Shown piece by piece: positions 25,510-53,279 of a DNA stretch of 57,358 bases. Under the pieces are notes generated by a model, which saw nothing but the letters and a program-made list of their open reading frames with translations, ran no database searches and was not told where the DNA came from. The position numbers and the translations under genes were made by a program. Each line of letters starts with the position of its first letter. Position 1 is the stretch's first letter. The DNA lies in IMG/VR virus record IMGVR_UViG_3300015189_000004, positions 1 to 57,358 of that record; one strand, 5' to 3'. Origin of the DNA: a virus (lineage: Duplodnaviria; Caudoviricetes).

Positions 25510-25520
25510 GGAGCATATTC

Positions 25521-25829: not shown

Positions 25830-25844
25830 CTCCTAAACGTAGGG

Positions 25845-25876
25845 TCGCGGGTTTTACACCGCCTATAATGAGACCC
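25845..25876 (+). promoter_or_regulatory. Conserved phage promoter motif, copy 1
   Basis: TCGCGGGTTTTACACCGCCTATAATGAGACCC; the TCG-to-TATAAT offset is 19 nt in all ten copies. Confidence 0.85.
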
Positions 25877-25893
25877 CTACTTAAGGAGAACGC

Positions 25894-26184
25894 ATGTTCC
25901 ATCCCTTTGCCAAATCTGAAAAGACTGGACTTGAGGAGGCCCGCGATCAAGCGCTACTCGAACTGAAGAATTTCACGACCGACGACGCATTGTACGAACA
26001 AACACTGAAGCACGTGAAGACGCTCAGCAAACTCATTGAGGCAGAAGCCCATGAGAAGCTGAACCCAAACACTGTTGCACTGATTGCCGGCAATGCATTC
26101 GTCGCACTGATAGTCGTCAGCTACGAGAGCAAGAACGTCGTGGGCACCAAAGTCATATCTTTCCTGATGAAAGCTACCCGATGA
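25894..26184 (+). CDS. Hypothetical protein with C-terminal hydrophobic segment
   Basis: AAGGAG RBS directly after promoter copy 1. Confidence 0.7.
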   Translation: MFHPFAKSEKTGLEEARDQALLELKNFTTDDALYEQTLKHVKTLSKLIEAEAHEKLNPNTVALIAGNAFVALIVVSYESKNVVGTKVISFLMKATR

Positions 26185-26270
26185 ACTGCTGACCTAACAC
26201 AGGCAGCCCAAAACACAGAAGACGTGTGAGACCTAAACCCTCTTACACGTCTTCTGTTTTTGTGCAGTTC
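26183..26270 (+). terminator. Multibranch hairpin/terminator
   Basis: Outer GAACTGC/GCAGTTC stem; inner ACAGAAGACGTGTGAGA/TCTTACACGTCTTCTGT stem followed by a T run; small CCTAACACAGG hairpin. Confidence 0.7.
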
Positions 26271-26327
26271 TACAAGGGTTCTAAAAATTGCTTCCAAAAA
26301 ATCCCGCGGAGGAAATTTTGGACAAGG

Positions 26328-26359
26328 TCGCAGGAATTACATGTCATATAATGAGACCC
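26328..26359 (+). promoter_or_regulatory. Promoter motif, copy 2
   Basis: TCGCAGGAATTACATGTCATATAATGAGACCC. Confidence 0.85.
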
Positions 26360-26381
26360 ACACACCACGAAAGGATTCATT

Positions 26382-26534
26382 ATGAACATCATCGACCGTG
26401 TCAACAAGAAGGTCCACACCGTAACCAACAACTCCAACGTTCGTACCACCGCAAAAATCACCGCGCTGGTCGTCGCCACCGTTGTCTGGGTTCGAGTTGT
26501 GGACGCTGCTTACGACAAGTTCACCGAAGAATGA
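26382..26534 (+). CDS. Small membrane protein (50 aa)
   Basis: Read by eye: GAAAGGA RBS, then MNIIDRVNKKVHTVTNNSNVRTTAKITALVVATVVWVRVVDAAYDKFTEE. Confidence 0.7.
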   Translation: MNIIDRVNKKVHTVTNNSNVRTTAKITALVVATVVWVRVVDAAYDKFTEE

Positions 26535-26563
26535 TCTGATACACCCCACTCAGTTGTAAATCT

Positions 26564-26598
26564 CAAACCAACAGCCCCTAACACGGGCTTAAGGTTTG
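26564..26598 (+). terminator. Hairpin with CTAACAC loop
   Basis: CAAACC-aac-AGCCC-CTAACAC-GGGCT-taa-GGTTTG; near-identical copy at 30907. Confidence 0.65.
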
Positions 26599-26603
26599 CC
26601 TCT

Positions 26604-26634
26604 TCGCAAGATATTCGGGCCCTATAATGAACCC
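26604..26634 (+). promoter_or_regulatory. Promoter motif, copy 3
   Basis: TCGCAAGATATTCGGGCCCTATAATGAACCC. Confidence 0.85.
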
Positions 26635-26656
26635 CTACCACCCGAAAGGACACACC

Positions 26657-26836
26657 ATGTTCGACAAGTACACTTCCGCCAAGAAGTTCGTTGCCAAGCA
26701 CAAGGTCGCCATCGCAATCACCGGTACAGCAGCAGTCTGCTTGTACCTGAATCGCCTGGCCCTCACGCAGCACAACGACTTCCTCAAGGAGCACGACCTG
26801 TACGAAGCATTCTATCTCGTCGGATCAGAAGAGTAG
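26657..26836 (+). CDS. Small membrane protein
   Basis: GAAAGGA RBS; MFDKYTSAKKFVAKHKVAIAITGTAAVCLYL... Confidence 0.7.
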   Translation: MFDKYTSAKKFVAKHKVAIAITGTAAVCLYLNRLALTQHNDFLKEHDLYEAFYLVGSEE

Positions 26837-26840
26837 TTCA

Positions 26841-26875
26841 CAGACCTTAACCCCCTAACACGGGGTTAAGGTCTG
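26841..26875 (+). terminator. 14-bp hairpin with CTAACAC loop
   Basis: CAGACCTTAACCCC-CTAACAC-GGGGTTAAGGTCTG, followed by a T-rich run. Confidence 0.75.
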
Positions 26876-26915
26876 CCTTATTTTTGCCTCAAACCAAATC
26901 TCCGAAAGGGACATC

Positions 26916-27137
26916 ATGTTCAAGAAGCACTCGATTCAGGTACAGATGATCAAGACCCCGAATGTCAAGCCGACGGTAGAGACACCAACTCCCGCAGCTA
27001 GCTTCGACCCAGACCACATCAGTCAACTCATATCCGAGCAGGTGGAGCACACAGCCATCACTGTTGTTGCTTCTTTTGCTGCGATCATCCTGTTCAAGAC
27101 CGTGAGTGAGATTGCCATCAACTTGTCGAAGGCCTGA
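26916..27137 (+). CDS. Small membrane protein
   Basis: GAAAGGG RBS; C-terminal hydrophobic segment. Confidence 0.65.
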   Translation: MFKKHSIQVQMIKTPNVKPTVETPTPAASFDPDHISQLISEQVEHTAITVVASFAAIILFKTVSEIAINLSKA

Positions 27138-27139
27138 CC

Positions 27140-27171
27140 TCGCAAGAAAACCACGTCCTATAATGAGACCC
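27140..27171 (+). promoter_or_regulatory. Promoter motif, copy 4
   Basis: TCGCAAGAAAACCACGTCCTATAATGAGACCC. Confidence 0.85.
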
Positions 27172-27247
27172 ATAACGCCTACCATCCTATCAACGGAGAA
27201 ACGGCTGACCACATAGTGGAAACCGCTAAAGCGGAATGGTATCTCAT
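27163..27247 (+). ncRNA. Candidate small RNA A
   Basis: ATGAGACCCAT...ATGGTATCTCAT terminal stem with a bulge; inner A-CCAC-ATA-GTGG-A and A-CCGC-TAAA-GCGG-A hairpins; then TTTTCTGCC. Confidence 0.6.
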
Positions 27248-27310
27248 TTTTCTGCCTCATCCTTCTAGAATCCTCTAGCAGGCAATTGTGAAACTAGTAA
27301 GGAGATAGGC

Positions 27311-27703
27311 ATGAACATGGACCAGCGTGCGAAGATCAAGGACCACTTCCGTGAGAACAAGAACGTGTATATCGCTGCTGGTGTTGGCGTCCTCGTCGGT
27401 GCTGCCGGCTGTGTCTTCCTGAAAGATTCATCCACACTTGTCTCGATTCGAGAGACTCTGAACTTCAAGTGGAAATCGCCGACGACAAATGTTGTTCAGT
27501 TGATCATTCCGCCACTTGGTGATGCTGGGAATGTTGTTCAGTGTGTTGAAACAGGAACGATCTATGCGAGTCAAGGTCAAGCAGCACGAGAGCTTGGTGT
27601 CCGTGCTACGGACGTCTCGAAGCATATGCATGGTGTTCAAGAGCACGTCGCTGGATTGCATCTAAAGCTTCTAGGCAAGGCTGGCGAACCACTCGCAGGA
27701 TAA
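27311..27703 (+). CDS. Membrane-anchored protein with C-terminal NUMOD1-like HTH (paralogue of 39869)
   Basis: TM segment VYIAAGVGVLVGAAGCVFL, FKWKSPTTN, VQCVETGTIYASQGQAARELGV; the C-terminus resembles that of the HNH at 34523. Confidence 0.75.
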   Translation: MNMDQRAKIKDHFRENKNVYIAAGVGVLVGAAGCVFLKDSSTLVSIRETLNFKWKSPTTNVVQLIIPPLGDAGNVVQCVETGTIYASQGQAARELGVRATDVSKHMHGVQEHVAGLHLKLLGKAGEPLAG

Positions 27704-27724
27704 ACCCGCCCTATAATGAGAACC
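27693..27724 (+). promoter_or_regulatory. Promoter motif, copy 5 (overlaps the 27311 stop codon)
   Basis: TCGCAGGATAAACCCGCCCTATAATGAGAACC. Confidence 0.85.
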
Positions 27725-27795
27725 ACACTACCGGTCACCCGCTTACGGGAGGCTGACTACCCGCTTACGGGAAGTTGAAAAGTAGTGTGGTTCTC
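27716..27795 (+). ncRNA. Candidate small RNA B (2 x ACCCGCTTACGGGA)
   Basis: Perfect 14-bp terminal stem 27718-27731/27782-27795; repeats at 27737 and 27759 with G.U-containing lower stems. Confidence 0.75.
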
Positions 27796-27803
27796 CTTTT
27801 GCC

Positions 27804-27835
27804 ACGCAGGAAAACCACACCCTATAATGAGAACC
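27804..27835 (+). promoter_or_regulatory. Promoter motif, copy 6
   Basis: ACGCAGGAAAACCACACCCTATAATGAGAACC. Confidence 0.85.
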
Positions 27836-27935
27836 TAGTATCTGGATCACCCGATAAGGGAGATCTGAATGGCCACCCGATAAGGGAGACCTACTTGCCA
27901 CCCGATAAGGGAGACAACAGATACTAGGTTCTCAT
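27827..27935 (+). ncRNA. Candidate small RNA C (3 x CACCCGATAAGGGAGA)
   Basis: Perfect 18-bp terminal stem 27827-27844/27918-27935; repeats at 27848, 27874 and 27899 with covarying flanks. Confidence 0.78.
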
Positions 27936-27967
27936 TTTTCTGCCTAAACTCAACGAAAGGAATTGTT

Positions 27968-28090
27968 ATGTACTCACAGTGCAGAAAGCGTTACGGATTC
28001 TGGAACTTCATCGGAGACGTCCTCATGACGTGTCTCACAAGTGGGCTCTGGCTCATCTGGATCTTCGTTCGTGAGATGCGTCGTCGCTGA
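27968..28090 (+). CDS. Small membrane protein (40 aa)
   Basis: Read by eye: GAAAGGA RBS, then MYSQCRKRYGFWNFIGDVLMTCLTSGLWLIWIFVREMRRR. Confidence 0.65.
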   Translation: MYSQCRKRYGFWNFIGDVLMTCLTSGLWLIWIFVREMRRR

Positions 28091-28091
28091 C

Positions 28092-28241
28092 ATGCGTCTC
28101 ATATTCTGGGTCTCCATGCTGATCATCGCCGCAGGGTTCATCGCACGCTGGTACCGCGTCAGTGCGCCTCAGTCTCAGACAACAAATCTGCCGGAGACTT
28201 CCGGTGAAACGCTCGAAAGGAACACCGATGACGCTGCTTGA
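28092..28241 (+). CDS. Small membrane protein
   Basis: MRLIFWVSMLIIAAGFIARW...; starts 1 nt after the previous stop. Confidence 0.5.
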   Translation: MRLIFWVSMLIIAAGFIARWYRVSAPQSQTTNLPETSGETLERNTDDAA

Positions 28242-29001
28242 CATCGCAAAGAAGGTTGAGAGACTTGCCATTGAGAACTCTCCGGCCATTCTGACAGCGA
28301 TTGCTGTTACTGGATCACTGGCCACAGCATATCTTGCTGGTTCGGCCTCGTTCAAGGCTGCGGATCTGATTGCGGACGAGCAGTACCGCTTGGACCTGCA
28401 CCCGACGGCACACCAGCTCGAAACCAAGGAGAAGTTCTACCTCGTATGGAAAGCCTATATCCCAGCCGCTGGTACGGGTGTCGTGACCATAGTGTGCATC
28501 ATCGGCGCCAACCGTATCGGATCACGTCGGGCTGCAGCAGTAGCTGCCGCGTACACGATATCCGAGAAGGCATTCACCGAGTACCGGGAAAAGGTCGTCG
28601 AGAAGATGGGCGAAGCCAAGGAGCGGAAGGTCCGCGATGAGGTGGCGCAGGATCAGGTCAATCGGAATCCTGCCGGATCTCGAGAGATCGTCATCACTGG
28701 CAATGGCGACGTGCTCTGCTATGACGTCTTCTCGGAGCGATATTTCGAGAGCGACATGGAGACGCTCAAGAAGGCTCAGAACGATCTGAACTACACGCTC
28801 CTCAACGATGGTTATGCCTCTCTCGGGGACTTCTACGGCAAGATTGGCCTCTCTGCGATGCCGTATTCCGAAGAAGTTGGCTGGACGAGTGAGCATCTGA
28901 TGGAGATGCAGCTCTCGACCACGCTTTCGGATGATCAGCGTCCGTGCATTTCGCTCGACTTCCGCGTGACACCTGTGCGGGACTACTACCGCGTTCACTG
29001 A
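28228..29001 (+). CDS. Conserved phage protein (DUF6353-like; paralogue of 32080)
   Basis: NSPAILTAIAVTG...AAAVAAAY...AFTEYREKV...GYASLGDFY...VGW. Family name recalled, not searched. Confidence 0.65.
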   Translation: MTLLDIAKKVERLAIENSPAILTAIAVTGSLATAYLAGSASFKAADLIADEQYRLDLHPTAHQLETKEKFYLVWKAYIPAAGTGVVTIVCIIGANRIGSRRAAAVAAAYTISEKAFTEYREKVVEKMGEAKERKVRDEVAQDQVNRNPAGSREIVITGNGDVLCYDVFSERYFESDMETLKKAQNDLNYTLLNDGYASLGDFYGKIGLSAMPYSEEVGWTSEHLMEMQLSTTLSDDQRPCISLDFRVTPVRDYYRVH

Positions 29002-29011
29002 GGCCTACGCC

Positions 29012-29043
29012 TCGCAAGAATTACGGGTCCTATAATGAGACCC
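29012..29043 (+). promoter_or_regulatory. Promoter motif, copy 7
   Basis: TCGCAAGAATTACGGGTCCTATAATGAGACCC. Confidence 0.85.
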
Positions 29044-29066
29044 ATCCAACAAAAAGGAGAACCATC

Positions 29067-29261
29067 ATGTCCGAGCAGATCCCCGACATCAGCACCCTTC
29101 CCACCAAGAAGTTCGCATTCCTCAACAAGACCAACGCCATCCGCGTCGCCGTCGCAGCCACCGCTGTCGCCGTCGTCGCAGTACTCGTCGTCAAGTTGAA
29201 GGACGGCGCCTTCGAGGACGAGATCGGTGACCTGACCGTCGTCGAGACCCCCGAGTCCTGA
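29067..29261 (+). CDS. Small single-pass membrane protein
   Basis: AAGGAG RBS; hydrophobic run VAVAATAVAVVAVLVV. Confidence 0.7.
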   Translation: MSEQIPDISTLPTKKFAFLNKTNAIRVAVAATAVAVVAVLVVKLKDGAFEDEIGDLTVVETPES

Positions 29262-29285
29262 CACACCCCCAAGTTTGACCCCTCG

Positions 29286-29331
29286 AAAGGAAAGGCTTTG
29301 TAACCAACAATTACAGAGCCTTTCCTTTTTG
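29286..29331 (+). terminator. Intrinsic terminator
   Basis: AAAGGAAAGGCTTTGTAA-ccaacaa-TTACAGAGCCTTTCCTTT followed by TTG. Confidence 0.75.
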
Positions 29332-29357
29332 CTTTGACCAATGATAAGGAATACTAG

Positions 29358-29777
29358 ATGCAACACAAAGATTTCGAACGCGTTCTCGATCAGCAGATCA
29401 AGATGTGTCAGGATGTTCTGGTCGTCAAATCCGGAAGCTACTCGACTGAGTCAGACAAACTGCACAACTTCAAGGTTGCCGCCGATATTCAGGGATGCAC
29501 GATCCCGCAGGCGGTTGCCGGGATGATGGTCAAGCACACGGTCTCGATCTATGACATGTGCGCCAGTGACAAGGGCTTCGACATGGAGATCTGGGACGAA
29601 AAGATCACAGACCACCTGAACTACCTGTTCTTGCTCAAGGCAGCAGTGCTCGAAGAGGCCTACGACACGCTTCCGTGGGCACTGCTTCCCTATTTCGAGT
29701 CGGGACCACCCGCTCCGTCGGCTCACGCCACAGTCAACACGGACGGCTCTATCCACCTGCATTGCACTGAGATCTGA
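29358..29777 (+). CDS. Hypothetical protein (possible all-alpha nucleotide-modification-associated domain)
   Basis: K...Y....DKLHNFK...M.KH...EKITDHLNYL pattern. Confidence 0.55.
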   Translation: MQHKDFERVLDQQIKMCQDVLVVKSGSYSTESDKLHNFKVAADIQGCTIPQAVAGMMVKHTVSIYDMCASDKGFDMEIWDEKITDHLNYLFLLKAAVLEEAYDTLPWALLPYFESGPPAPSAHATVNTDGSIHLHCTEI

Positions 29778-29928
29778 GAGGCATACCCATGCATGATCGT
29801 CTTACCAAGATCCAATACGTCGCTTTCATCGCTGGTGCTTCGGTTGGACTCCTCATGGCCCGAGGGTTCATTGCTGGCGTCAACAAGGTCTTCCCGCCCA
29901 ACCCCATCAAGAACTGAAAGGCACACCC

Positions 29929-30486
29929 ATGCTCAAGAAAGACATCACATACCAGGACCTCGACGGCAACTCCCTCACGGAGACCTTCTGGTTCAACCTC
30001 TCCAAGGCTGAGATCGCCAAGATGGAGCTCAGCAAGAACGGCGGGGGCCTGACCGGCTACCTCAAGGCCATCGTGGAGGCAGAAGACGGAGAGGCCATCG
30101 TCACTACCTTCGAGGAGATCTTGACCAAGGCCTACGGCATCCGCAATGCGGACAACAAGGGCTTCGACAAGTCTCCTGAGATCTCGAAGCACTTCATGTC
30201 GACCGATGCTTATTCGGTTCTGTTCATGGAGCTCGTGACGGACGCTGAGGCAAGCTCGGCCTTCATTCGGGGGATCGTTCCGGCAGATCTCAGCGAGAAG
30301 ATGGACGACACCGTCCTTCCGGCTGGAATGCTTCCGAAGTCTGACTTCCGTCTCGAGAGTGTAGGGACGGATCTTCACAGTGCGGCTGAGACGGTCTCTG
30401 CTGCGGTCGAGACGGCAAAGACGTCGAACATGACTCTCGACGAGATGAAGGCTGCGATCCGCAAGGCCGAAGAGAACAGCCAGTAG
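29929..30486 (+). CDS. Conserved hypothetical protein
   Basis: GAAAGG RBS; MLKKDITYQDLDGN...FWFNLSKAE; strong codon bias. Confidence 0.75.
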   Translation: MLKKDITYQDLDGNSLTETFWFNLSKAEIAKMELSKNGGGLTGYLKAIVEAEDGEAIVTTFEEILTKAYGIRNADNKGFDKSPEISKHFMSTDAYSVLFMELVTDAEASSAFIRGIVPADLSEKMDDTVLPAGMLPKSDFRLESVGTDLHSAAETVSAAVETAKTSNMTLDEMKAAIRKAEENSQ

Positions 30487-30595
30487 TTCATATTTGCGAG
30501 ATGGGAGTTAGCAAGGGTCCTTTCTCAGGGGTCTCGCCCTATTCCGGATGCTGACTTATAAACGCCAGCCGACGTTCCCATATCATGTGCCCACC

Positions 30596-30627
30596 TCGCA
30601 GAAACTCCACGCCCTATAATGAGACCC
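30596..30627 (+). promoter_or_regulatory. Promoter motif, copy 8
   Basis: TCGCAGAAACTCCACGCCCTATAATGAGACCC. Confidence 0.85.
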
Positions 30628-30646
30628 CTATGAAAGGAACACCACC

Positions 30647-30901
30647 ATGACCAAAACTGACATCACCAAAGCTGTCGTTCGCAACATCGTTGGCTACACC
30701 ACTTCGTTCACTATCGCAAACCTCATCCGTCGCAACCTCCAGACAGAATCCACCATTGAAACGGTCGAGATCTATGTCGGGTCGGTTGTCGTCGGTGCCA
30801 TGATTGCCGAGAGTGCACAGAAGTACGTAGACAAAGAGATTGACGACCTGACCGCCGCGTGGAAGTCCATGAAGACCACCATGAAAGCCAACCAGAACTA
30901 G
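30647..30901 (+). CDS. Hypothetical protein
   Basis: GAAAGGA RBS after promoter copy 8. Confidence 0.7.
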   Translation: MTKTDITKAVVRNIVGYTTSFTIANLIRRNLQTESTIETVEIYVGSVVVGAMIAESAQKYVDKEIDDLTAAWKSMKTTMKANQN

Positions 30902-30906
30902 ACCCT

Positions 30907-30948
30907 CAAACCCACAGCCCCTAACACGGGCTTACGGTTTGCTTTTTT
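30907..30948 (+). terminator. Hairpin with CTAACAC loop and T tract
   Basis: CAAACC-cac-AGCCC-CTAACAC-GGGCT-tac-GGTTTG-CTTTTTT. Confidence 0.75.
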
Positions 30949-30963
30949 GACAGAGGACTAATT

Positions 30964-31269
30964 ATGGAATATCCCGGCAACAGTTATGCCATGCGAGGCG
31001 AGATGAAGCGCGTTGCCAGCGAAGATCCAAGCACATATCAAAACACCTCTGGCCATTACTACGTTCGACTCAAATACACGGTGTGGCCTGAACTCTACGG
31101 GGACGAACTCCCGATTCCTTTTCCGACTCTCAAAGCAGCACTATTCTTTGCTGAGATCAACATCACGTCCACAGTAGTTCGTGCTCGTGTGTACACGCCA
31201 TCCGGCACTCTGGTCACTATATTTGCCTACTCCAATAGTGGGACAGTACGCAATGACCTTCTCTCTTAG
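30964..31269 (+). CDS. Hypothetical protein
   Basis: GAGGA RBS; ORF track. Confidence 0.6.
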   Translation: MEYPGNSYAMRGEMKRVASEDPSTYQNTSGHYYVRLKYTVWPELYGDELPIPFPTLKAALFFAEINITSTVVRARVYTPSGTLVTIFAYSNSGTVRNDLLS

Positions 31270-31281
31270 ATTGAGGACAAA

Positions 31282-31932
31282 ATGGTTAGCGAATTCCCCA
31301 GCAACAGCAAGAACCCTACGAACGAAAAGAAGTCGAAGGAAGAGCCGAAGAAGGTCGAGCGGGTCATTCAGGGCGAAGTCATTCGTCGAAAGAAGCCGAT
31401 GCTGCGACGTCTCAAGGACACCTTCGGCGGTGGCGACGCCAAGGGCGCTGTCAGTTTCGTTCTGATCGACGTGATTCTTCCGATGACGAAGGACATGGTT
31501 GCTGACGCGGTCAGTCAGGGCGCCGAGCGAATGATATTCGGTGAGTCGAGGTCTACGAGTCGTCGAAGTGGTCGTCATTTCGGAAGCGGCTCGAACAACC
31601 ACACCAACTACCAGAAGTCGTTCCGAGGAGGCTCTCGTGACAACTACCGAGACGATCCTCGGGCAAACCCGACACGCAAGGCACGAGCAAGCTTCGACTT
31701 CGAAGACATCATCATCCCCACGCGCGCTGAGGCTGAGGACGTTATCGACCAGCTCTTTGAGTTGATCTCGAAGTTCGAGGCAGTCACCGTCGCGGAACTC
31801 TACAGTCTCGTAGGTGTCACACCGACCTACACCGACGAGCAGTGGGGCTGGTACGACCTTCGTGGTGCAGGACCGACCCGGATCAGCAATGGATATCTGC
31901 TTGAACTCCCGAAGCCGGAACCTCTCGACTGA
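31282..31932 (+). CDS. Conserved hypothetical protein
   Basis: GAGGA RBS; C-terminal VTVAELYSLVG...WGW motif. Confidence 0.7.
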   Translation: MVSEFPSNSKNPTNEKKSKEEPKKVERVIQGEVIRRKKPMLRRLKDTFGGGDAKGAVSFVLIDVILPMTKDMVADAVSQGAERMIFGESRSTSRRSGRHFGSGSNNHTNYQKSFRGGSRDNYRDDPRANPTRKARASFDFEDIIIPTRAEAEDVIDQLFELISKFEAVTVAELYSLVGVTPTYTDEQWGWYDLRGAGPTRISNGYLLELPKPEPLD

Positions 31933-32069
31933 TGGCGAGCAACAGCAAAGAGCGAGAGTTGTTGAAGACTGTATATCCCAGCAAGCAGTGGGCTGAGAAA
32001 GTCAACAACATGACCACCGCTCAAGTCATAGCCGTAGTTATGCGGCTCAAGATGCAGAACAAACTTTAA
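31932..32069 (+). CDS. Small hypothetical protein (45 aa)
   Basis: Read by eye: TGATG coupling, MASNSKERELLKTVYPSKQWAEKVNNMTTAQVIAVVMRLKMQNKL. Confidence 0.55.
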   Translation: MASNSKERELLKTVYPSKQWAEKVNNMTTAQVIAVVMRLKMQNKL

Positions 32070-32079
32070 GGAGTCAAGC

Positions 32080-32988: not shown

Positions 32989-33162
32989 AAGGATCGAAAT
33001 TATGAACGCAAAGCCGAAGCCCCCGACCAAGAAGACTCCTACCCTGAAGCAGACTGCATGGGGTAAGAACTTCCTCCCCGATCAGGGCCCGAAGATCAAT
33101 GGGTCCTCACTGCAGTACACGTCCAACTCGTCCAAGTCCTTTCAGATTCCGGAGGCTCGCGC

Positions 33163-34520: not shown

Positions 34521-34522
34521 GC

Positions 34523-35026: not shown

Positions 35027-35051
35027 CTCTGTCAAATAGAAAGGAGGGTAG

Positions 35052-40258: not shown

Positions 40259-40281
40259 AATACACGCTCTATAATGAGACC
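40251..40281 (+). promoter_or_regulatory. Promoter motif, copy 9 (overlaps the 39869 stop codon)
   Basis: TCGCATAAAATACACGCTCTATAATGAGACC. Confidence 0.85.
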
Positions 40282-40408
40282 AACCACTGGACGCCCGTTA
40301 AGGGTATCCGACAATGGACGCCCGTTAAGGGTATCCGACAATGGACGCCCGTTAAGGGTATCCAATACCAGACGCCCGTTAAGGGTATCGAAAAGTGGTT
40401 GGTCTCAT
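40274..40408 (+). ncRNA. Candidate small RNA D (4 x GACGCCCGTTAAGGGTATC, 27-nt period)
   Basis: Perfect 15-bp terminal stem 40274-40288/40394-40408; repeats at 40290, 40317, 40344 and 40371. Confidence 0.78.
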
Positions 40409-40410
40409 TT

Positions 40411-40495
40411 GAACCCATAACGTATAGGAGACCCCAGAAGGGGACACCTTTGCCGGAGACCCCAGAAGGGGACACTGGTAGTTATGGGTTCTCAT
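40411..40495 (+). ncRNA. Candidate small RNA E (2 x GGAGACCCCAGAAGGGGACAC)
   Basis: 11-bp stem GAACCCATAAC/GTTATGGGTTC; repeats at 40427 and 40455; ends in TCTCAT. Confidence 0.72.
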
Positions 40496-40592
40496 AAACA
40501 AGATTAGAACTCCAATCAACGAGTCACCCCTTTAGGGGAGGCCATGTTATGCACTGCAGGCTTGGGTTGTACACGGATTCTTGTTTTCTCAT
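40496..40592 (+). ncRNA. Candidate small RNA F (single GTC-A-CCCC-TTTA-GGGG-A-GGC hairpin)
   Basis: AAACAAGA/TCTTGTTT stem; ends in TCTCAT followed by TTCTGCTT. Confidence 0.55.
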
Positions 40593-40624
40593 TTCTGCTT
40601 TCAAACAAAGAAGGAGTAGCAATT

Positions 40625-41050
40625 GTGCAGACATTTCTGCCATACGAAAGCTTCGAGGAGTCAGCACGAGTTCTTGACCGTCAGCGCTTAGGCAAGCAAC
40701 GTGTTGAGGGTTACCAAATCCTCAAGGCACTTGTCCTAGGGACGGGATGGATTCATCATCCGGCAACAAAGCAGTGGGCTGGCCACGAGTTCTGGTTAGT
40801 GGACTACATTCTCGTCATGATCGACGAGTGGACACGTCGAGGCTACAAGGACTCCGTCCGGGACAAGATCGATGCTCTTCTTCTGGAGTATCCACTTCCT
40901 TTGTGTTCTCGTCCAGACTGGCTTGGGTATGAGCCATACCACGCATCACACCGAGCAAACCTTCTTCGTAAGGATCAGTTCTACTACGGTCAGTTCGGAT
41001 GGACCGAAGATTCAACCACGCCATATTACTGGCCATCGCACAACAACTAA
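40625..41050 (+). CDS. Pyrimidine-dimer DNA glycosylase/endonuclease V-like protein (MSMEG_6728 family)
   Basis: MQTFLPY...LDRQRLGKQRVE..QIL...HHPA..QW...HASHRANLLRKD; AAGGAG RBS before GTG. Confidence 0.8.
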   Translation: MQTFLPYESFEESARVLDRQRLGKQRVEGYQILKALVLGTGWIHHPATKQWAGHEFWLVDYILVMIDEWTRRGYKDSVRDKIDALLLEYPLPLCSRPDWLGYEPYHASHRANLLRKDQFYYGQFGWTEDSTTPYYWPSHNN

Positions 41051-41062
41051 GGAGCACTAAAT

Positions 41063-41560
41063 ATGGCTTACAACGACAACAACGTTCTCATGGAGGACGT
41101 TCGTATCATCTTCCGAAACTTCGCTGGCAAGGAGGGGATGTACAACCGAGAAGGCGACCGCAACTTCGCAGTTCTCCTCGATCCTCAGCTCGCGGAAGCG
41201 ATGTCCAAGGACGGCTGGAACGTCAAGACCCTCAAGGCGCGAGAAGAGGAGGACGAGCCTCAGGCATATCTGCAGATCTCGGTCAACTTCAAGGGCCGTC
41301 CGCCGCAGATCGTCATGATCACCTCTCGTGGTCGCAACCATCTCGGTGAAGACGAGGTCGAGCTTCTGGACTGGGCAGACATCCGTCAGACGGACCTGAT
41401 CATCCGGCCCTACGAGTGGGCTGTCAACGGCAAGACTGGAGTCAAGGCATATCTCCAGTCGATCTACGTGACCATCGAGGAAGACGCACTGCAGCTCAAG
41501 TACGCCGATGTGCAGGACATCCAGTCTCGCAGCGGACGTACCGACGACCGGGAGGACTGA
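41063..41560 (+). CDS. Single-stranded DNA-binding protein
   Basis: IIFRNFAG...YNREGDRNF and GVKAYL motifs, acidic C-terminus, AAGGAG RBS. Confidence 0.65.
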   Translation: MAYNDNNVLMEDVRIIFRNFAGKEGMYNREGDRNFAVLLDPQLAEAMSKDGWNVKTLKAREEEDEPQAYLQISVNFKGRPPQIVMITSRGRNHLGEDEVELLDWADIRQTDLIIRPYEWAVNGKTGVKAYLQSIYVTIEEDALQLKYADVQDIQSRSGRTDDRED

Positions 41561-41743
41561 TGGACGAAGAGTTCATTCGACCGGCAACCTGTCAGTTCTG
41601 TCTCGCTGATCCGAAATACACCGGCTTGGGTCCTGATCCAACAAAAAGATGTCCTGTCTGTGGATCGGCATACTGTGGCCCTCGTCGATCTAAAGAGTAT
41701 GTAACCCTAGTTGAGGCGCAACTCGTCTCGAGAGAGGACTGAC

Positions 41744-42370
41744 ATGGACAGCGATACCTGGGTTCAGAGGATTCGGGCATGGTGGAACTGGACGTTCTAC
41801 TACCGCGTGACACGAAACCGGGAGCAGTTGCTTCTGTGGTTTGTCGGTCATCTGCCTCGAGAGGTTGCCTATCGTGCAGCCATTCGGGTGATTGCTGACG
41901 CGACTACCGGTGCATATGGCAACCAGAACGTTCCGGAGTTGTATGCCATGGATGCAATCGAACGTTGGCCAAAGCGTCTGGGTGGTGATCGTACTAACAG
42001 AAAGACTAGGGACGATCAAGTTCTTCTGACTGATGAGCAGCTCGGCCGGTACACCTATCAAGACGATCAGAGATCTCACGATCTTGCTGTAGCGATCTGT
42101 CACACAGTCGATTACATCGGCACGGAGAACCTTCCGGCAGTTCCGGGTTGGTCTTGGTTTGATGCCCTCGATCAGCATTATCCAGAGATGGCTCAGCAGT
42201 TCGTTTCCGGTCGTGTCGGTGAGAAGGGTGGTCGATGCTCATCTTGTCATACCATGCAGACGATTCGTTACGGGATGATCAGAGCGCATGCCGACTCGAA
42301 CGAGAAGATCTGTTCGGGTTCAGGGTTCCCTCCGCTTGATCCACCTCTGAACGTGTCGAACGGTGAATAG
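41744..42370 (+). CDS. Hypothetical protein
   Basis: GAGGA RBS before MDSDTW; C-terminal CxxC...H...C cluster. Confidence 0.55.
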   Translation: MDSDTWVQRIRAWWNWTFYYRVTRNREQLLLWFVGHLPREVAYRAAIRVIADATTGAYGNQNVPELYAMDAIERWPKRLGGDRTNRKTRDDQVLLTDEQLGRYTYQDDQRSHDLAVAICHTVDYIGTENLPAVPGWSWFDALDQHYPEMAQQFVSGRVGEKGGRCSSCHTMQTIRYGMIRAHADSNEKICSGSGFPPLDPPLNVSNGE

Positions 42371-42830
42371 CTCACACATATTCACGTACTGGAATGGTCT
42401 TCCCACAACAGCTTCACGTGGGACGGCCGTAGTCGCTGACGCACCAGAGTTCTCCCTTTACTGGGCAAGGGCTTTGGTGGGTCAGCGCATTCCAGTTGTG
42501 AAGGTCTACCTTGACGGCGTGAACTACGGCGGGGGTATCACATATCTCGACAACCGCGATGGCTCAGGGTGGCATAAGGTCACTGCGGGTCGCGGTTCGT
42601 CGAGGTATGCACACGGAGAAGTGTCCATCGAAGAAGACAGCTTTGAGGAAGATCATGCATAACGAAGCGGTGCAGACTCTTATTCTGTTGGAGCCTGACG
42701 AAGCACACACAGATAGCTGCAGAGCACACAAGGACCCGTCCAAGTGCAACTGCTATCTTCTCCAGAATGCCAAAACTCGAGTCACCGCGCTGGAGCAGGC
42801 GGGGTGGACAAATATCAGGAGGCACTCAGT

Positions 42831-43211
42831 ATGAACGAAGCGAAGCGTTACCGCAGGAAAGCTCGAGCCATCGACAAACTCATCCCAACAGACGACATCG
42901 TTCTCGAAGCGATGCAGTTGACTGGTCGTCCTGTTGAGACCATGCATGTCTGTGAGTGGATTCGAGACAGCGGATATCCATGGCTTCTCGGAAACGCGAC
43001 TCAGCCCGAAACGCTTGTGCCCGAGGGTGGTGGAAAAGCCGGCGACCCCGGTATCTATCTCGACCCAGCAACGGGAGAGCTTGTCGTTCGAATGCGCGAT
43101 CACGATGAGCGGGGTAAGTATGGGGAGTGGTGGCTTCATTTCCCTGACGGAAGTTTTCGAGCGTACTCTCCGGAGTTCTTTGCAGCCATGTACGAACCGC
43201 TCAACGACTGA
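42831..43211 (+). CDS. Hypothetical protein (YRRK...EA.Q / G.W...F...F...YE family)
   Basis: AGGAGG RBS; distant paralogue of 43626. Confidence 0.6.
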   Translation: MNEAKRYRRKARAIDKLIPTDDIVLEAMQLTGRPVETMHVCEWIRDSGYPWLLGNATQPETLVPEGGGKAGDPGIYLDPATGELVVRMRDHDERGKYGEWWLHFPDGSFRAYSPEFFAAMYEPLND

Positions 43212-43625
43212 TCCCAACCACCCGCCCCCAGTACTAAGAAGGAGTAAATGTGTCTACCACGATCCCCAAAGAGTTCGTCGGAACGCCCACAGTCACCCCC
43301 GGAAAGATTGCTGATTTTACCGAGTGGTATGTGAGCATGCTCGGCGACATGGACAAGGCTAGCGACATGGATGACGCCCTCTACTACTGGGGGTTCAGCG
43401 ATGCGATGGAGTCAGTACTTACGGTTCTCCACAACAATACCGCCGAAGCTGTCAAGGTCGTAGTCAAGCCGGGTCGTCATCTCATCACCAAGAAGCGTGT
43501 CATCATCGGCGTGACGATCTTTGTCTTGTACAAGAACCGGACTCGAATCAAAACCAAGCTCAATGAGGTCAAGGACCACCTCAAGCACATCTGATCTACA
43601 CAAACTCTGAAAGAGGAATCGAATT

Positions 43626-44084
43626 ATGTCTTTGAAGCCAGTGAAGTATGTCCGCAAGCCGTTCTACATCGACGCCATACAGGTTACCACAGAGAACCTC
43701 AACGAGGTTGCCAAGTGGTGCCAGGGTGAGGTGCGCTGGGCATGCAGAGACCCCAAGGGGACTGCTGAGAAGGATGCGTACGTCAAGGTCCGTGTTCATC
43801 GTCCTCTGAATGAGCGTCAGACTCAGGCCTTCGTCGGTGACTGGGTTCTGTATGCCGGAACCGGGTACAAGGTCTACACCCTCAAGGCGTTCACCAACAG
43901 CTTCGAGGTTGTTGACAGCGTCTCGAGGTATGAGATGGAGCGGATCGAGAACGAGCGTGAGGCAGAGGCCAAGATCGTCCGTGAAGAGAAGTTCAACCAG
44001 ATCGAGCTCACCGAGAAGATCGAAGAGCTCATGACCGTCAACCAGCAGGCAGTGCTTGCTCCCGTCGAATTCAAGGAAGCCTGA
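43626..44084 (+). CDS. Hypothetical protein (KYVRKP..IDAIQ...GDWVL family)
   Basis: GAGGA RBS; motif shared with 42831. Confidence 0.65.
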   Translation: MSLKPVKYVRKPFYIDAIQVTTENLNEVAKWCQGEVRWACRDPKGTAEKDAYVKVRVHRPLNERQTQAFVGDWVLYAGTGYKVYTLKAFTNSFEVVDSVSRYEMERIENEREAEAKIVREEKFNQIELTEKIEELMTVNQQAVLAPVEFKEA

Positions 44085-44480
44085 CATGAACGAGCACACG
44101 GCCAACGTGGCCACCATCACCATCATTGTCCTCGGGGTTTTGGCCCTGAAGGTTCTCAAGAAGAAGGGTTTGTTATGAGCGAACAGCCTGCAGTTCCCGC
44201 AGTGACCCAGATCGTCATCCCGCCGAAGCCCCGGCCGACGCGTGAGCTTGAGATCGAGGCTGACATGGCCGTTCGATATCTCGAGCAGTTCACTCGCAGT
44301 GACCGGCTTGACCCGGACCTGCGGATGGCGATGACGGGCATGGGTGTCTTCTGTGTTGGTGTGATGGTTATCGCCGTCAAGGCGGGCATCGCACAGGAAG
44401 CACGGATGACTTCTACGTTGAATGGGTACGTCGATCAGCTCAACGCTTTGGTCGAGATGTCTCAGGTCAACGCGCTGTAA

Positions 44481-44765
44481 CAACTCCTCTGGGGGAGTCT
44501 AAACCGCTTAAGCCCAGAGCGTCGGGACTCGATTTGTAGGGGGTCGGGTCCCGGGTGGCTGTGAAGGACAACACAGAAGTCTAATTGACGGTAGCCTGTC
44601 GATATAGATCTAAATAAAAAACCGGTTCGTGGTTTACCCCGCGAGGGGATCGAAGAGGATCGACTACTCCAAGTCGAAACTCGATTACCTTTATGCATGG
44701 AGCTTAAGGTAAACGAACGACGGTGGTGGGGCTATGGACAGCGACAGGTTCTTAGCCCCACTGCC
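44481..44765 (+). ncRNA. Candidate large structured RNA
   Basis: ~285 nt with no + strand ORF in the track; several hairpins with G.U pairs and a possible pseudoknot CCTGTCG (44595)/CGACAGG (44742). Confidence 0.55.
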
Positions 44766-45022
44766 CTTTAACCCACCCAAATTTTGAAGGAGATCGGCAT
44801 GACCAAAGCTCGGCGTCAGGGTTTCTATACCCGAGGCAAAAGTAACCGCAGCAGCAAGCGTCTGTACATGACTGGATCTCCGGTCGAGAAGCTCATCAAC
44901 TTGATTGAGCGCGAGGCCAAGCACAACCCACACGCAAGCGCTTTGCAGAGGAAGCGTGACGAAGACGCACGAGCCTTCCGGCTCAGCGAAAACCAAACCA
45001 AAATTTCAGAAAAGGAATTGTC

Positions 45023-45451
45023 ATGAAGAAGTCCATTGCTTCGATCATCGCTATCTGCACCATAGCTTTTCTGTCTGCCTGCTCCAGTCCTGCTGTCGAG
45101 GACGCTGCATCGGTAGCCGCTCCGGTTGCCGTCGTCACCACCACGGAGGCTCCTGTGTCTTGGAACGGTACTTGGAAGGCCGAGGGAATGTCGGCTGTCA
45201 TCAAGGACAATCTCATCACGATCAACATCGTCTCTCCCGACACCACCTCGCTCTACTGGCAGGGTGACTGGGATATGAGCAAGCCGGCTAAGGATGGGAC
45301 TGACATGGTCTCGATCGGGGATGTCGCAGCAATGAGTGCGTCGATGCTCGGCTCGCAGGACAACAAGAAGGCCTTCTCTTTTGAGAACGATGAGCTGAAG
45401 TTCTCGTTCTCGATGATGGGGACCACCAAGACCATTCGTCTGAAGAAGTAG
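45023..45451 (+). CDS. Lipoprotein
   Basis: MKK plus hydrophobic stretch plus lipobox LSAC. Confidence 0.8.
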   Translation: MKKSIASIIAICTIAFLSACSSPAVEDAASVAAPVAVVTTTEAPVSWNGTWKAEGMSAVIKDNLITINIVSPDTTSLYWQGDWDMSKPAKDGTDMVSIGDVAAMSASMLGSQDNKKAFSFENDELKFSFSMMGTTKTIRLKK

Positions 45452-46180
45452 GGGCTATGAAGATCAAGTGTGAGAAGCACAACCGTAGGGTCATGATCAT
45501 CCCAAAGCCGCTGGGTATTCCTCAGGTCACTCTTCATCGAGATGACGGGTCACACTGCGATCTTCTCGGCGCATACATCATGGGTAAGAAGGTCGTATCT
45601 TTTCGTGCGATTGATCACCACATCATGGTCATGAAGGAGCTCAAGTGACTCAGAACGTTTTCGACAACGCTGAGCCAGACCCAACGGTTCCGGGGATGAC
45701 CTTGGAGAAGCTCAACGCGATGATCAAGTCAGAGAACATCTGGCATGAGGGTCAAGTCGCTCTGGACCTCAGTCGGTACGAGGCAACTGCTCGCACTGAG
45801 AAAGCTCGTCACGATTTTCGACTGCAGGAACTCGAGATGATCATCACGACTCTCAAAAGTCTGCCTAGAGGAGAACAATGAGCATTTTCACACTGTCCGA
45901 GGATGACCCAATCGTTATTCGGGCGAAGGGTCTCAAGGATGCAGGCATGACTGAGGTCGGCTTCATTCCCGAAGACGAGTACGGCTGCAAGATCTACGGT
46001 CGGAACGAGTACGGACGACTGATGCTCATCGGCATTCACTCAAAGAGCTACGGGTGCCCGAAGAAGAGCACCGACAGCATCCAGATCACAGCAAGTCTAC
46101 TAAGGAGGTGATCGGCATGAGACCCAAGTCCAACACCCACGCACTCTGAGTATAGCTCGTCGCCGGCCCATAACTGAATA

Positions 46181-46259
46181 GCGCTGCACGGCACCTCATA
46201 GGGCTGTGGGAACTCACTCGATATCGAGGAGTAAAGAGGTTCGAACCCTCTTCAGCGCA
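46181..46259 (+). ncRNA. tRNA-like element (non-canonical)
   Basis: GCGCTG/CAGCGC-A acceptor-like stem and AGAGG-TTCGAAC-CCTCT T-arm; the D and anticodon arms are atypical. Confidence 0.5.
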
Positions 46260-46638
46260 CGATCCTTTAAACGGTCATTACTAAGGTGGTGATGTCATGC
46301 AACCGAGCGTTAAACGCGCTCACGCTTTCCGTTAAGGAGTTGGTGGGGATCTCTAGCCGGGGTTCCCACCGCTCTGACAAACCCAAATTCAACCAAAGGG
46401 AACCAAAATGAGAACCACTAAACTGACGACTCCCAAGATGAACAAAGACCTCGCATCAGACAAGCCTGCTGGTTACTGCCGAGAATGTGCACACTTCATT
46501 CTCCTCAACAACGAAACCGGCATGGTCCGCAAGCATGGTCGTAAGGCTGACGGTGTGTACTGCAAGGGCTCGCATCGTGCGCCTTCGAAGGCTGCAGACT
46601 CATATCTCGTGAAGGACTGGACCCCTCCGCGTAGAAGC

Positions 46639-46666
46639 TCGTAGGAATTACACGCCATATAATGAA
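46639..46666 (+). promoter_or_regulatory. Promoter motif, copy 10
   Basis: TCGTAGGAATTACACGCCATATAATGAA. Confidence 0.8.
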
Positions 46667-53230: not shown

Positions 53231-53279
53231 AGAAGGGGATAAGCAACTTCCATGCCATCTATTTTTGGGGAGATTCCAC

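Follow-up and report, generated by a model that had tools for sequence, protein, structure and literature searches.

Ten near-identical copies of a 33-base signal lie on one strand of the tailed phage record IMGVR_UViG_3300015189_000004, and they probably serve as promoters for an RNA polymerase encoded by the phage itself. Sequence comparison suggests that the RNA would begin at the fifth to seventh base counted from the first T of the TATAAT hexamer, rather than downstream of it as at a host promoter. The whole record of 57,358 nucleotides was analysed and is referred to below as the window.

Copies of the signal in the window

The signal TCGCA-N14-TATAAT-GAGACC occurs exactly ten times in the window, always on the plus strand and only in the non-structural arm (25.8-46.7 kb). 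An initial annotation, made from the sequence alone, had listed ten copies with a box 19 nt before TATAAT; every one was found where it had been placed, and the distance from the first box base to the hexamer was exactly 19 nt in all ten. The hexamer is an exact TATAAT in each copy, identical to the sigma-70 -10 consensus, and the upstream box is TCGCA in seven copies, with a single change in TCGCG (25845), ACGCA (27804) and TCGTA (46639). Of the downstream element, given as GAGACC or GAGAACC, GAGA directly follows the hexamer in eight copies, while 26604 has GAAC and 46639 has GAAG.

These ten motifs are real signals. The string TATAATGAGA occurs eight times in the window, all on the plus strand; with up to one mismatch allowed, the count averaged 1.93 over 100 shuffles and peaked at 6, with none reaching eight. 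In a weight matrix made from the ten copies, and thus circular for them, they scored 40.3-53.2 bits. The same matrix run over the whole window yielded no eleventh copy (next best -0.4 bits on the plus strand and 2.7 bits on the minus strand), and neither the structural arm (1-25800) nor the minus strand contained one. The claimed lack of TTGACA held for eight of the nine copies (25845 to 40251) covered by a sigma-70 consensus scan of 25001-45000, a -35 hexamer being expected 16-18 bp upstream of the -10 box; copy 27804 was flagged for TTGCCA, which derives from the tail of the preceding terminator. An extended -10 TGn precedes the hexamer in none of the ten copies, and among 257 related sites T was found at -3 in 51 and G at -2 in 49.

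The features are listed here, with promoters and their targets as proposed.

25845-25877, plus strand: candidate promoter copy 1, box TCGCG, TATAAT at 25864-25869, GAGACCCC; proposed to drive the ORF 25894-26184
26328-26360, plus strand: candidate promoter copy 2; proposed to drive the ORF 26382-26534
26604-26636, plus strand: candidate promoter copy 3, hexamer followed by GAACCCC; Shine-Dalgarno site and ATG at 26657
27140-27172, plus strand: candidate promoter copy 4; proposed to drive structured RNA unit A
About 27163-27251, plus strand: unit A, closing stem AUGAGA...UCUCAU, then a U-run
27693-27725, plus strand: candidate promoter copy 5; proposed to drive unit B
About 27716-27799, plus strand: unit B, closed by a 14-bp stem from GAGAACC around two small hairpins
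27804-27836, plus strand: candidate promoter copy 6, box ACGCA; proposed to drive unit C
About 27827-27940, plus strand: unit C, closed by an 18-bp stem from AUGAGAACC around three tandem hairpins
29012-29044, plus strand: candidate promoter copy 7; proposed to drive the ORF 29067-29261
30596-30628, plus strand: candidate promoter copy 8; proposed to drive the ORF 30647-30901 together with the replication block that follows
40251-40283, plus strand: candidate promoter copy 9; proposed to drive unit D
About 40274-40411, plus strand: unit D, closed by the 13-bp stem AUGAGACCAACCA around four hairpin repeats of 27 nt
46639-46671, plus strand: candidate promoter copy 10, box TCGTA, GAAGAGAAGACC; proposed to drive unit E, about 46662-46754
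54183-56897, plus strand: gene for a predicted two-barrel RNA polymerase of 904 aa, phrog_4291 match; proposed reader of the ten promoters

In copy 3, the Shine-Dalgarno site and ATG at 26657 indicate that the listed ORF start at 26627 is the ATG within TATAATG. The small early ORFs mostly match only PHROGs of unknown function. A second stem-closed array lies at 40411-40497, directly after unit D.

The phage polymerase

A phage RNA polymerase had been guessed in the initial annotation without having been seen, and the window does encode one at 54183-56897. A T7-like enzyme is not present among the four ORFs of at least 600 aa, which encode a tape measure protein, a capsid-protease fusion, a primase/polymerase and a YonO/QDE-1-type two-barrel enzyme; a search for PF00940 (T7-like polymerase) gave no match in the window, the positive control likewise giving none. 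The T7 layout is therefore an analogy and not a relationship. The wider idea of a phage-polymerase promoter that mimics a Pribnow box gained from several independent comparative lines, given below, with a polymerase of another kind as its proposed reader.

As judged from its sequence, the 904-aa protein is a single-chain two-barrel RNA polymerase of the YonO/QDE-1 type. It matches phrog_4291 over its full length (E = 0), contains ADFDGD at residues 512-517, with DFDGD invariant in 38 homologues, and carries helix-turn-helix modules at both the N and C termini, as well as a weak sigma-70 region-4 match at residues 883-904. Foldseek searches with an AlphaFold model (pTM 0.48) gave QDE-1, RDR2 and the two-barrel polymerases of Thermus phages P23-45 and P74 as best PDB matches, with probability 1.0 yet low TM-scores of 0.19-0.23, and a sequence search of the polymerase against the PDB returned 0 matches. 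According to a preprint (10.1101/842583), the family had earlier been termed a putative YonO-like polymerase with HTH ends.

The gene is the second-last of the genome, and the nearest upstream copy of the signal lies at least 7.5 kb away. This position speaks against the proposal, as something else would have to transcribe first unless the polymerase rides in the virion. A bolder and rather doubtful version of the proposal is that the polymerase is carried in the virion, injected with the DNA, and reads the 33-bp duplex promoters alone from within TATAAT. Were this so, early transcription in some Firmicutes phages and in actinobacterial phages, as a very large group, would be free of the host polymerase from the first minute, all their transcripts would start with AUG or GUG, and several of these would be 'panhandle' RNAs whose arrays of small hairpins might be decoys for a host RNA-binding factor.

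Distribution in related phages

The same motif at the same spacing was found in hundreds of related phage contigs. Its link to the polymerase gene was examined in 42 IMG/VR records, each 38 kb or longer, that contain the 14-mer CTATAATGAGACCC, with the pattern YCRC-N8-CA-N5-TATART. At least two copies of the pattern were present in 36 of the 42 records, and 34 of these 36 carry the polymerase gene; the two multi-copy records without it are 66-68% complete. In all 34, the copies are confined to one strand, that of the polymerase gene, and a reversed-pattern control gave one match in total. In the subset with a completeness of 90% or more (24 records), three or more copies are present in each of the 22 that carry the gene, against 0 and 1 in the two that lack it. 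The motif thus tracks the polymerase gene, a co-occurrence confounded by shared ancestry.

The motif also occurs in Streptomyces, Arthrobacter, Curtobacterium and oral phages. Lactococcus phage 1706 (33% GC) has 11 copies of the form CCACA/TCGCA-N7-ACA-N4-CTATAGT-AGAAAG, with the spacing unchanged and with neither a -35 element nor TGn, and its extended Shine-Dalgarno sequence AGAAAGAAGG starts directly after the hexamer. The spacing of box and ACA is kept exactly between phages from hosts of two phyla, with polymerase identities of only 38-57%. In 177 of 266 cassettes the start codon falls at position 29-33 (counted as below); a terminator is often found shortly before the motif, and the motif core is AT-rich. 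The polymerase homologue of phage 1706 is labelled 'structural protein' in GenBank, the only hint of virion carriage.

Conservation across the hexamer

With the first T of TATAAT numbered as position 0, the conserved block runs unbroken from -19 to about +13. It comprises TCGC(A/G) at -19 to -15, (A)CA at -8 to -6, G at -4, CC at -2 and -1, TATA at 0-3, a purine at 4, T at 5 and (G)AGACC(CC) from 6. Base frequencies were counted in 124 cassettes (94 metagenome loci) chosen by their leader only, the upstream box serving as a filter afterwards. Within the hexamer, conservation is lowest at position 1 (A in 103, 83%), compared with T at position 2 in 119 (96%), A at position 3 in 111 (90%), a purine at position 4 in 123 (99%; A in 105, G in 18) and T at position 5 in 121. 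In sigma-70 -10 boxes, the second-position A and the last T are near-invariant, and the middle positions are loose. The profile thus seems unlike that of a -10 box, as the second-position A is the weakest of the hexamer.

Two further features argue against a host -10 box. Positions 10-13 are CCCC, and the first purine follows only at about position 15, so that a run of C occupies the point where a sigma-70-type start is expected; and the closing stems of the RNA units use bases directly after TATAAT. If the phage polymerase is the reader, the exact TATAAT would be a coincidence, or a convergence on an easily melted TATA.

Closing stems and the proposed RNA start

Folding agreed with the earlier observation that the terminal stems of units A, C and D include the AT of TATAAT, the first base of ATGAGA pairing with ...UCUCAU. 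In unit B the closing stem begins at the G of GAGA and in unit E two bases further on, so that the stems use bases just after the hexamer in all five units of the window (folding z-scores for A-E: -2.75, -6.96, -6.93, -7.15 and -2.92). An automated search found 17 stem-closed units with the 5' arm anchored at position 6, versus 1 with the arm 20 nt upstream; pairing extends to position 5 in 7 of the 17 and to position 2 in none. Among the 77 best long-range helices, the outer boundary fell at positions 3-7 in 24 and between -5 and +2 in 4, and in all four units with a base other than T after ...CAT the stem stops exactly at position 4. The Smith-Waterman stem search was noisy and served only to find examples. 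An exact 7-mer complement search for closing stems was discarded as noise (13 matches versus 18 in the reversed control).

Closing stems therefore take in the G of GAGA (later in unit E), the AT in roughly one third to one half of units, and nothing beyond. From these extents we infer a 5' end between the fifth and seventh base counted from the T of TATAAT. The initial annotation had placed +1 at the A of ATGAGA; a start at or next to the end of TATAAT is backed by the stems, which fix it no closer than positions 4-6, because positions 3-4 pair with the U-run anyway. Contig ends, used as a proxy for 5' ends in a metagenome leader scan (161 matches, 120 loci), showed no pile-up, with only 2 matches within 6 nt of an end, too few to be informative, and the sequencing runs matching 25700-30800 comprised a DNA run (share 0.18) and no RNA run. 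ARAGORN detected no tRNA in the window or in a T-arm-like stretch of phage 1706, and Rfam gave no family at gathering score in the window, with two sub-threshold matches in 25800-47000.

Taken together, we infer the following scheme. The helix-turn-helix modules of the 904-aa polymerase would dock on the upstream box or boxes, TATA would be the melted segment, and the RNA would begin no later than the G of position 6, with the purine of position 4 as the first choice, making GAGACC an initially transcribed sequence and not a discriminator. Each promoter would head one short cassette of either of two kinds. In the first, a small gene with its Shine-Dalgarno site follows a standard leader of about 25 nt; in the second, the transcript is a structured RNA, its outermost 5' bases paired with the 3' end just before the U-run. 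The motif with its fixed spacing, the polymerase gene, the link between the two and the geometry of the stems are observations, whereas the reader of the motif and the start of the RNA are proposed.

Alternative explanations

The alternative that survives best, although we consider it unlikely, is that of host sigma-A promoters with a phage or host activator. TATAAT would then be a true -10 box, TCGCA (-31 to -27) and ACA an activator site replacing the -35 contact, and the phage polymerase would serve late genes. The -10 consensus, perfect in ten of ten copies, speaks for this, the box is placed like the MotA box of T4, at about -30, and promoters of Actinobacteria commonly do without a -35 element. 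The motif also heads the early and replication arm, with the polymerase gene at the far end, and YonO, the one relative that has been studied, transcribes late genes (Forrest 2017, PMC5467207), which makes the absence of the motif from the structural arm a point against the phage-polymerase reading. Host initiation would nevertheless leave positions 6-9 untranscribed, yet the closing stems need them; its predicted start falls in the C-run; and 21 of the 124 otherwise intact cassettes lack the second-position A required by sigma region 2. In Lactococcus phage 1706 a start 7 nt downstream would cut the ribosome site. A separate late-promoter motif was not found either, the record ends and left-arm gaps showing nothing repeated.

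Plain strong sigma-A early promoters of a '-10 only' type are less probable still; the additional conservation would reflect recent cassette duplication and a leader serving translation or RNA stability, rather than polymerase contacts of any kind. In Actinobacteria TANNNT by itself can suffice, and the fixed start-codon distance implies that promoter and leader move as one cassette. The arguments from the stems, the C-run and the second position apply here equally, and duplication inside one genome cannot account for a box and ACA spacing that is exact between phages of two host phyla. Recombination 'boundary sequences' are a very improbable explanation, despite the 32-bp intergenic repeat of Arthrobacter phage Giantsbane, six copies of which flank often-rearranged genes and which was read as a site that favours gene shuffling (10.1101/2020.01.10.891226). 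Restriction to one strand, fixed distance to ribosome sites and start codons, upstream terminators and an AT-rich core are all expected of promoters, and repeats of this kind could promote recombination as a side effect.

Comparison with known systems

T7-class promoters form a contiguous block through the start, with TATA before a purine +1 and a conserved purine-rich initial transcript. The signal resembles them in being a contiguous block of a few tens of bp through the proposed start with TATA before the purine and a conserved purine-rich stretch after it, and differs in its length of about 33 bp, in a separate upstream box at fixed distance and in the unrelated two-barrel enzyme. In T4 middle promoters a -10-like hexamer is paired with a conserved box that takes the place of the -35 element and lies some 30 bp before the start. 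The good hexamer and the upstream box are shared with them, but T4 middle promoters are read by the host polymerase from about 7 nt after the hexamer, whereas the stems, the C-run and the second-position tolerance argue against this for the present signal.

YonO of the Bacillus prophage SPbeta is likewise a single-chain two-barrel polymerase of a tailed phage. One start was mapped for it, followed by an unannotated non-coding RNA; its promoter sequence was stated to be unknown, and it serves late genes (Forrest et al., 2017, PMC5467207). In SPbeta, three TATA(A/G)T sites lie in the yonN-yonK gap, with the box at none. The virion and non-virion polymerases of Thermus phage P23-45, also two-barrel enzymes and structural neighbours of the 904-aa model as predicted, recognise short motifs specific to the phage that immediately precede mapped starts, and do so without host sigma; one motif is AT-rich and one GC-rich, and one of the enzymes forms a fusion with the tape measure protein (Chaban et al., 2024, PMC10770324). 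These motifs are unlike the present one, and helix-turn-helix ends are not reported for the P23-45 enzymes in the accessible part of that paper. Judging from its length and position, the 32-bp repeat known from Arthrobacter phages of cluster AU probably corresponds to the present signal, in a relative with the same polymerase gene. It was interpreted as a recombination boundary, and the words 'promoter' and 'RNA polymerase' are absent from the accessible part of the text (10.1101/2020.01.10.891226).

Implications

In the openly accessible literature the motif was not found described as a promoter of this family. The 33-bp consensus and predicted start make it testable, with one protein and one oligonucleotide, how single-chain two-barrel phage polymerases find their promoters. 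If the proposal is true, it would provide an orthogonal transcription system for Actinobacteria, account for the 32-bp repeat earlier taken as a recombination signal, and warn annotators that the ATG within TATAATG is not a start codon. The family is very large: its clusters at 90% identity number at least 8000, the gene is present in 250 deposited phage genomes, and up to 2026 its members were annotated as 'helix-turn-helix protein' or, puzzlingly, 'RNA-dependent RNA polymerase'.

Genome layout and distribution of the motif

The virus record is estimated to be 96% complete and all genes of the window lie on the + strand. Its DNA is only weakly similar to that of deposited phages, all similarity being confined to actinobacterial phages. 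The two arms are as follows.

1-25.8 kb, + strand: left arm, with lysis, packaging, head and tail genes (amidase, terminase, portal, capsid-protease fusion, tape measure, ReqiPepy6 Gp37-like tail protein)
Beyond 25.8 kb, + strand: right arm, with small genes of unknown function, primase/polymerase, annealing protein, helicase and exonuclease

The ten motif copies listed in the initial annotation were all found, starting at 25845, 26328, 26604, 27140, 27693, 27804, 29012, 30596, 40251 and 46639, and the first base of the upstream box precedes TATAAT by exactly 19 nt in every one, as had been claimed. The other elements proved less uniform: the box is TCGCA in seven copies and has one base changed in the remaining three, and the GAGA described as conserved downstream follows the hexamer in eight copies and is missing from two. 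The sequence TATAATGAGA occurs eight times in the window, on the + strand only, a number reached in none of 100 shuffles with one mismatch allowed. A weight matrix made from the ten copies scored its own sites at 40-53 bits and the best other site on either strand at no more than 2.7; scanning both strands with it revealed no eleventh copy, none in the structural arm and none in antisense. Five copies sit ahead of a Shine-Dalgarno sequence and start codon, and five ahead of structured RNAs.

Judged from sequence comparison, these motifs are probably promoters of a phage polymerase that mimic the Pribnow box, with transcription starting at or next to the end of the hexamer. A host -10 element assisted by an activator at the upstream box is a distinctly less probable reading, and plain host promoters are improbable. 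TATAAT is the perfect host consensus in all ten copies, which speaks against the phage-polymerase reading. As to the absence of TTGACA noted earlier, a sigma-70 consensus scan of 25001-45000 flagged one of the nine copies that it covers, and none of the ten has the TGn of an extended -10 element before the hexamer.

The sequence 5' of the box (at 25838-25848 and 40245-40254, for example) is of two classes, here and in related loci: some copies have a T-run, which belongs to the terminator of the unit before, and others have (TA)GGGGTC. Together with the box, (TA)GGGGTC is nearly the reverse complement of the leader GAGACCCCTA, so that an imperfect inverted repeat flanks the promoter.

Conservation of the motif in related phages

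A scan of IMG/VR for CTATAATGAGACCC returned at least 107 loci, many with 3-10 copies. Taking the T of TATAAT as position 0, the unselected positions of the 257 unique sites among the matches listed have T, C, G and C at -19 to -16 in 235, 240, 235 and 227 cases, followed by A or G at -15, and A, C and A at -8 to -6 in 202, 234 and 222; G at -4 and CC at -2/-1 are also conserved. Requiring only the upstream half and TATA gave 221 sites, with A (185) or G (32) at position 4 in all but 4 and T at position 5 in 218. TATAGT is found in Streptomyces phage Scap1 and Curtobacterium phage Yotsuba, and mostly TATAAT in Arthrobacter phage Circum and an oral phage. In Lactococcus phage 1706 the same layout, with the box at -19 to -15, ACA at -8 to -6 and CTATAGT, occurs 11 times; every copy lies on the gene strand, downstream of the tail genes. 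Of the 316 promoters in the loci listed, 266 are succeeded by a ribosome site and a start codon, the latter at position 29-33 in 177 of them; the promoter thus makes up a single standard module with its leader and ribosome site.

Whether TATAAT acts as a -10 box was judged from its conservation, the bases at the expected start, the ribosome site of phage 1706 and the closing stems described below. The second A and the last T of the sigma-70 hexamer are nearly invariant, and its middle positions are loose. A scan of metagenome contigs with the leader alone gave 142 unique sites with enough flanking sequence, of which 124 (94 loci) have the upstream box. Positions 0-5 of these are T in 115, A in 103, T in 119, A in 111, a purine in 123 and T in 121; the complete hexamer is TATAAT in 67 and TATAGT in 15. 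Set against the generally known sigma-70 pattern, conservation here appears inverted over the middle positions and is weakest at the second A. A at the second position is lacking from 21 of the 124 sites (TTTAAT, TGTAAT, TCTAAT, CTTAAT and others), yet these retain box, ACA, leader and start codon. Positions 10-13, where a sigma-70-type start would fall, are CCCC. In phage 1706 the bases from position 6-7 onward make up an extended Shine-Dalgarno sequence (AGAAAGAAGG, or AGAAGGAGG with ATG at position 23), and transcription beginning 7 nt past the hexamer would cut into this ribosome site.

Structured RNAs and the transcription start

Five structured RNAs follow motif copies in the window.

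27163-27251 (approximate), + strand: unit A, after copy 4
27716-27799, + strand: unit B, after copy 5
27827-27940, + strand: unit C, after copy 6
40274-40411, + strand: unit D, after copy 9
46662-46754, + strand: unit E, after copy 10

All five are closed, the 5' end pairing with the bases right before a U-run, with z-scores from -2.8 to -7.2. The terminal stems of A, C and D had been described as including the AT of TATAAT, and folding from the A of ATGAGA does pair the first base in all three; under the same folding the stem begins at the G of GAGA in unit B and two bases later in unit E. Ribosome site and ORF are both lacking after 49 of the 316 promoters, and by eye about 26 of these 49 units are closed by a 5'/3' stem ahead of a U-run. 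All of the latter use GAGA (positions 6-9), and in about 9-12 the pairing carries on, by way of ...CAU, into positions 5 and 4. In the four units with a base other than T after CAT (L013-971, L014-10164, L021-3012 and L035-4582) pairing ends exactly at position 4.

An automated search found 17 units with a stem whose arm is anchored at position 6 and one when the arm was moved 20 nt upstream, counts that are lower bounds, as the U-run threshold missed four of the five window units and some GA-rich arms were mis-registered. Seven of the 17 are paired as far as position 5 and none as far as position 2. The best long-range helix of each promoter (n = 77) has its outer boundary at positions 3-7 in 24 cases, 14 of them at position 3, where an A is paired to the U that opens the U-run; the boundary lies at -5 to +2 in 4 and at -30 to -24 in 25, which we take to be T-runs of upstream terminators. 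These stems require an RNA that includes position 6 and often 4-5, and they never reach further upstream. As the U-run pairs with positions 3-4 in any case, the stems narrow +1 down to positions 4-6 and no further; the simplest candidate is the position-4 purine, the A favored in the initial annotation. If +1 is this A, every transcript would start with AUG, the leaderless-translation signal of Actinobacteria. The hexamer and the next G spell ATG in all ten copies (GTG in TATAGT relatives), for example at 25868, 26351, 26627, 29035 and 40274. The frames so opened have 3-69 codons and are not conserved; some, such as 26627-26836 and 40274-40420, appear in ORF lists.

Genes without a promoter of their own come after units A, C, D and E (27311, 27968, 40544 and 46775), and stem plus U-run must therefore pass some transcription; these RNAs may serve as leaders too. 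Several promoter-driven RNAs (27716-27799, 27827-27940, 40274-40411 and 40411-40497) carry 2-4 tandem small hairpins inside one long closing stem (CCCG-CUUA-CGGG, CCC-GAUAA-GGG, CCC-GUUAA-GGG, CCCC-AGAA-GGGG; periods 25 and 27 nt). Rfam has no family matching the hairpin-array RNAs of the window, and related loci such as L050 and L044 have similar arrays with other hairpin sequences. A role of such arrays as decoys, or as scaffolds, for an RNA-binding protein is conceivable. Another phage contig, locus L099 (promoter at 1574, - strand), contains a homologue of unit E with a conserved interior, in which both closing arms are changed and pairing is retained.

The predicted two-barrel polymerase

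The initial annotation had implied a T7-type enzyme. This part of its proposal did not hold: no T7-like polymerase was matched in the window by a profile search whose control was also silent, and all four ORFs of at least 600 aa fall to other families. A predicted two-barrel polymerase is encoded instead, and the core of the proposal, a phage-polymerase promoter resembling a Pribnow box, is retained as the probable reading. The ORF at 54183-56897 (904 aa, + strand) is a full-length match (E = 0) to phrog_4291, 'RNA-dependent RNA polymerase', and has the motif ADFDGD, of which D-F-D-G-D is invariant over 38 aligned homologues. Its AlphaFold model (pLDDT 71.7, pTM 0.48) has QDE-1 as best PDB neighbor (E ~1e-6, probability 1.0, TM only 0.19-0.23), followed by RDR2 and the two-barrel polymerases of Thermus phages P23-45 and P74. 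Weak helix-turn-helix matches occur at residues 877-904, including sigma-70 region 4, and near the N terminus, and precomputed sigma region-4 matches exist in many homologues. In 250 deposited phage genomes a full-length homologue occupies the right end (Arthrobacter 95, Gordonia 55, Streptomyces 54, Lactococcus 13, and others).

Co-occurrence was assessed in all 42 records of at least 38 kb among the loci listed by the CTATAATGAGACCC scan. The polymerase gene is present in 35, and YCRC-N8-CA-N5-TATART occurs at least twice in 36, always on a single strand (the reversed control gave one match overall). Of these 36 records 34 carry the gene, on the motif strand in all 34, and the two exceptions are 66-68% complete; among the six records with 0-1 copies only one, 73% complete, has it. 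Completeness reaches at least 90% in 24 records: each of the 22 that carry the gene has three or more copies, and the two without it have 0 and 1. The co-occurrence is strong, although confounded by the shared descent of the relatives; it shows that motif and gene are kept together, not which enzyme reads the motif.

A point against the phage-polymerase reading is that the nearest motif copy is more than 7.5 kb from the polymerase gene, which sits at the extreme right; either another promoter must act first or the enzyme arrives with the virion. A hexamer variant without upstream box, CTTATAATAGAAGGGG, is located at 53223-53245, directly before the nuclease-exonuclease-polymerase block, and could be a means of expressing the gene; in Arthrobacter phage Circum the corresponding position has a copy with the box. 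The only hint of virion carriage is the GenBank label 'structural protein' on the phage 1706 homologue, a label also borne there by two more ORFs outside the structural arm. Drawn as a circle, the genome has the gene immediately ahead of the late block, a position that would fit a virion protein made late in infection.

Published relatives and minor observations

A preprint proposed that the family comprises YonO-like polymerases with HTH ends; its text lacks the word 'promoter' (10.1101/842583). YonO, the only studied relative, makes late transcripts, which speaks against a phage-polymerase reading of the ten copies; its promoter was stated to be unknown, and its start is followed by a non-coding RNA (PMC5467207). 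No second motif able to serve the structural arm was found at the record ends or in the left-arm gaps. Work on P23-45 showed that phage two-barrel polymerases read short phage-specific motifs, mapped by cappable-seq (PMC10770324). In Arthrobacter phage Giantsbane a 32-bp intergenic repeat with six copies, present in all cluster AU phages, was read as a recombination boundary sequence (10.1101/2020.01.10.891226). This repeat is probably the same element, and a role purely in recombination is very improbable for the ten copies. The word 'promoter' is absent from an Arthrobacter phage survey, and two Streptomyces phage papers (2024, 2026) name the 'RNA-dependent RNA polymerase' with no remark on promoters. 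Full-text searches of openly readable main articles found no description of such promoters.

Two long ORF-free gaps occur, at 44481-44798 and 46112-46291. The latter holds GGTTCGAACCC, which resembles a tRNA T-arm; ARAGORN called no tRNA in the window, this stretch included. A comparable stretch, likewise not called a tRNA, lies within a promoter-driven, stem-closed RNA of Lactococcus phage 1706. Distant from the tail genes, the early-arm ORF 29929-30486, to which PHROGs assigns no function, matches Pfam Phage_TAC_17 (tail assembly chaperone); the same arm contains a pair of DUF6353 paralogues (28162-29001 and 32080-32988). Both record ends (1-13 and 57346-57358) bear CCCCCG(G/T)CTGCAT, possibly a short terminal repeat or else an overlap from assembly.
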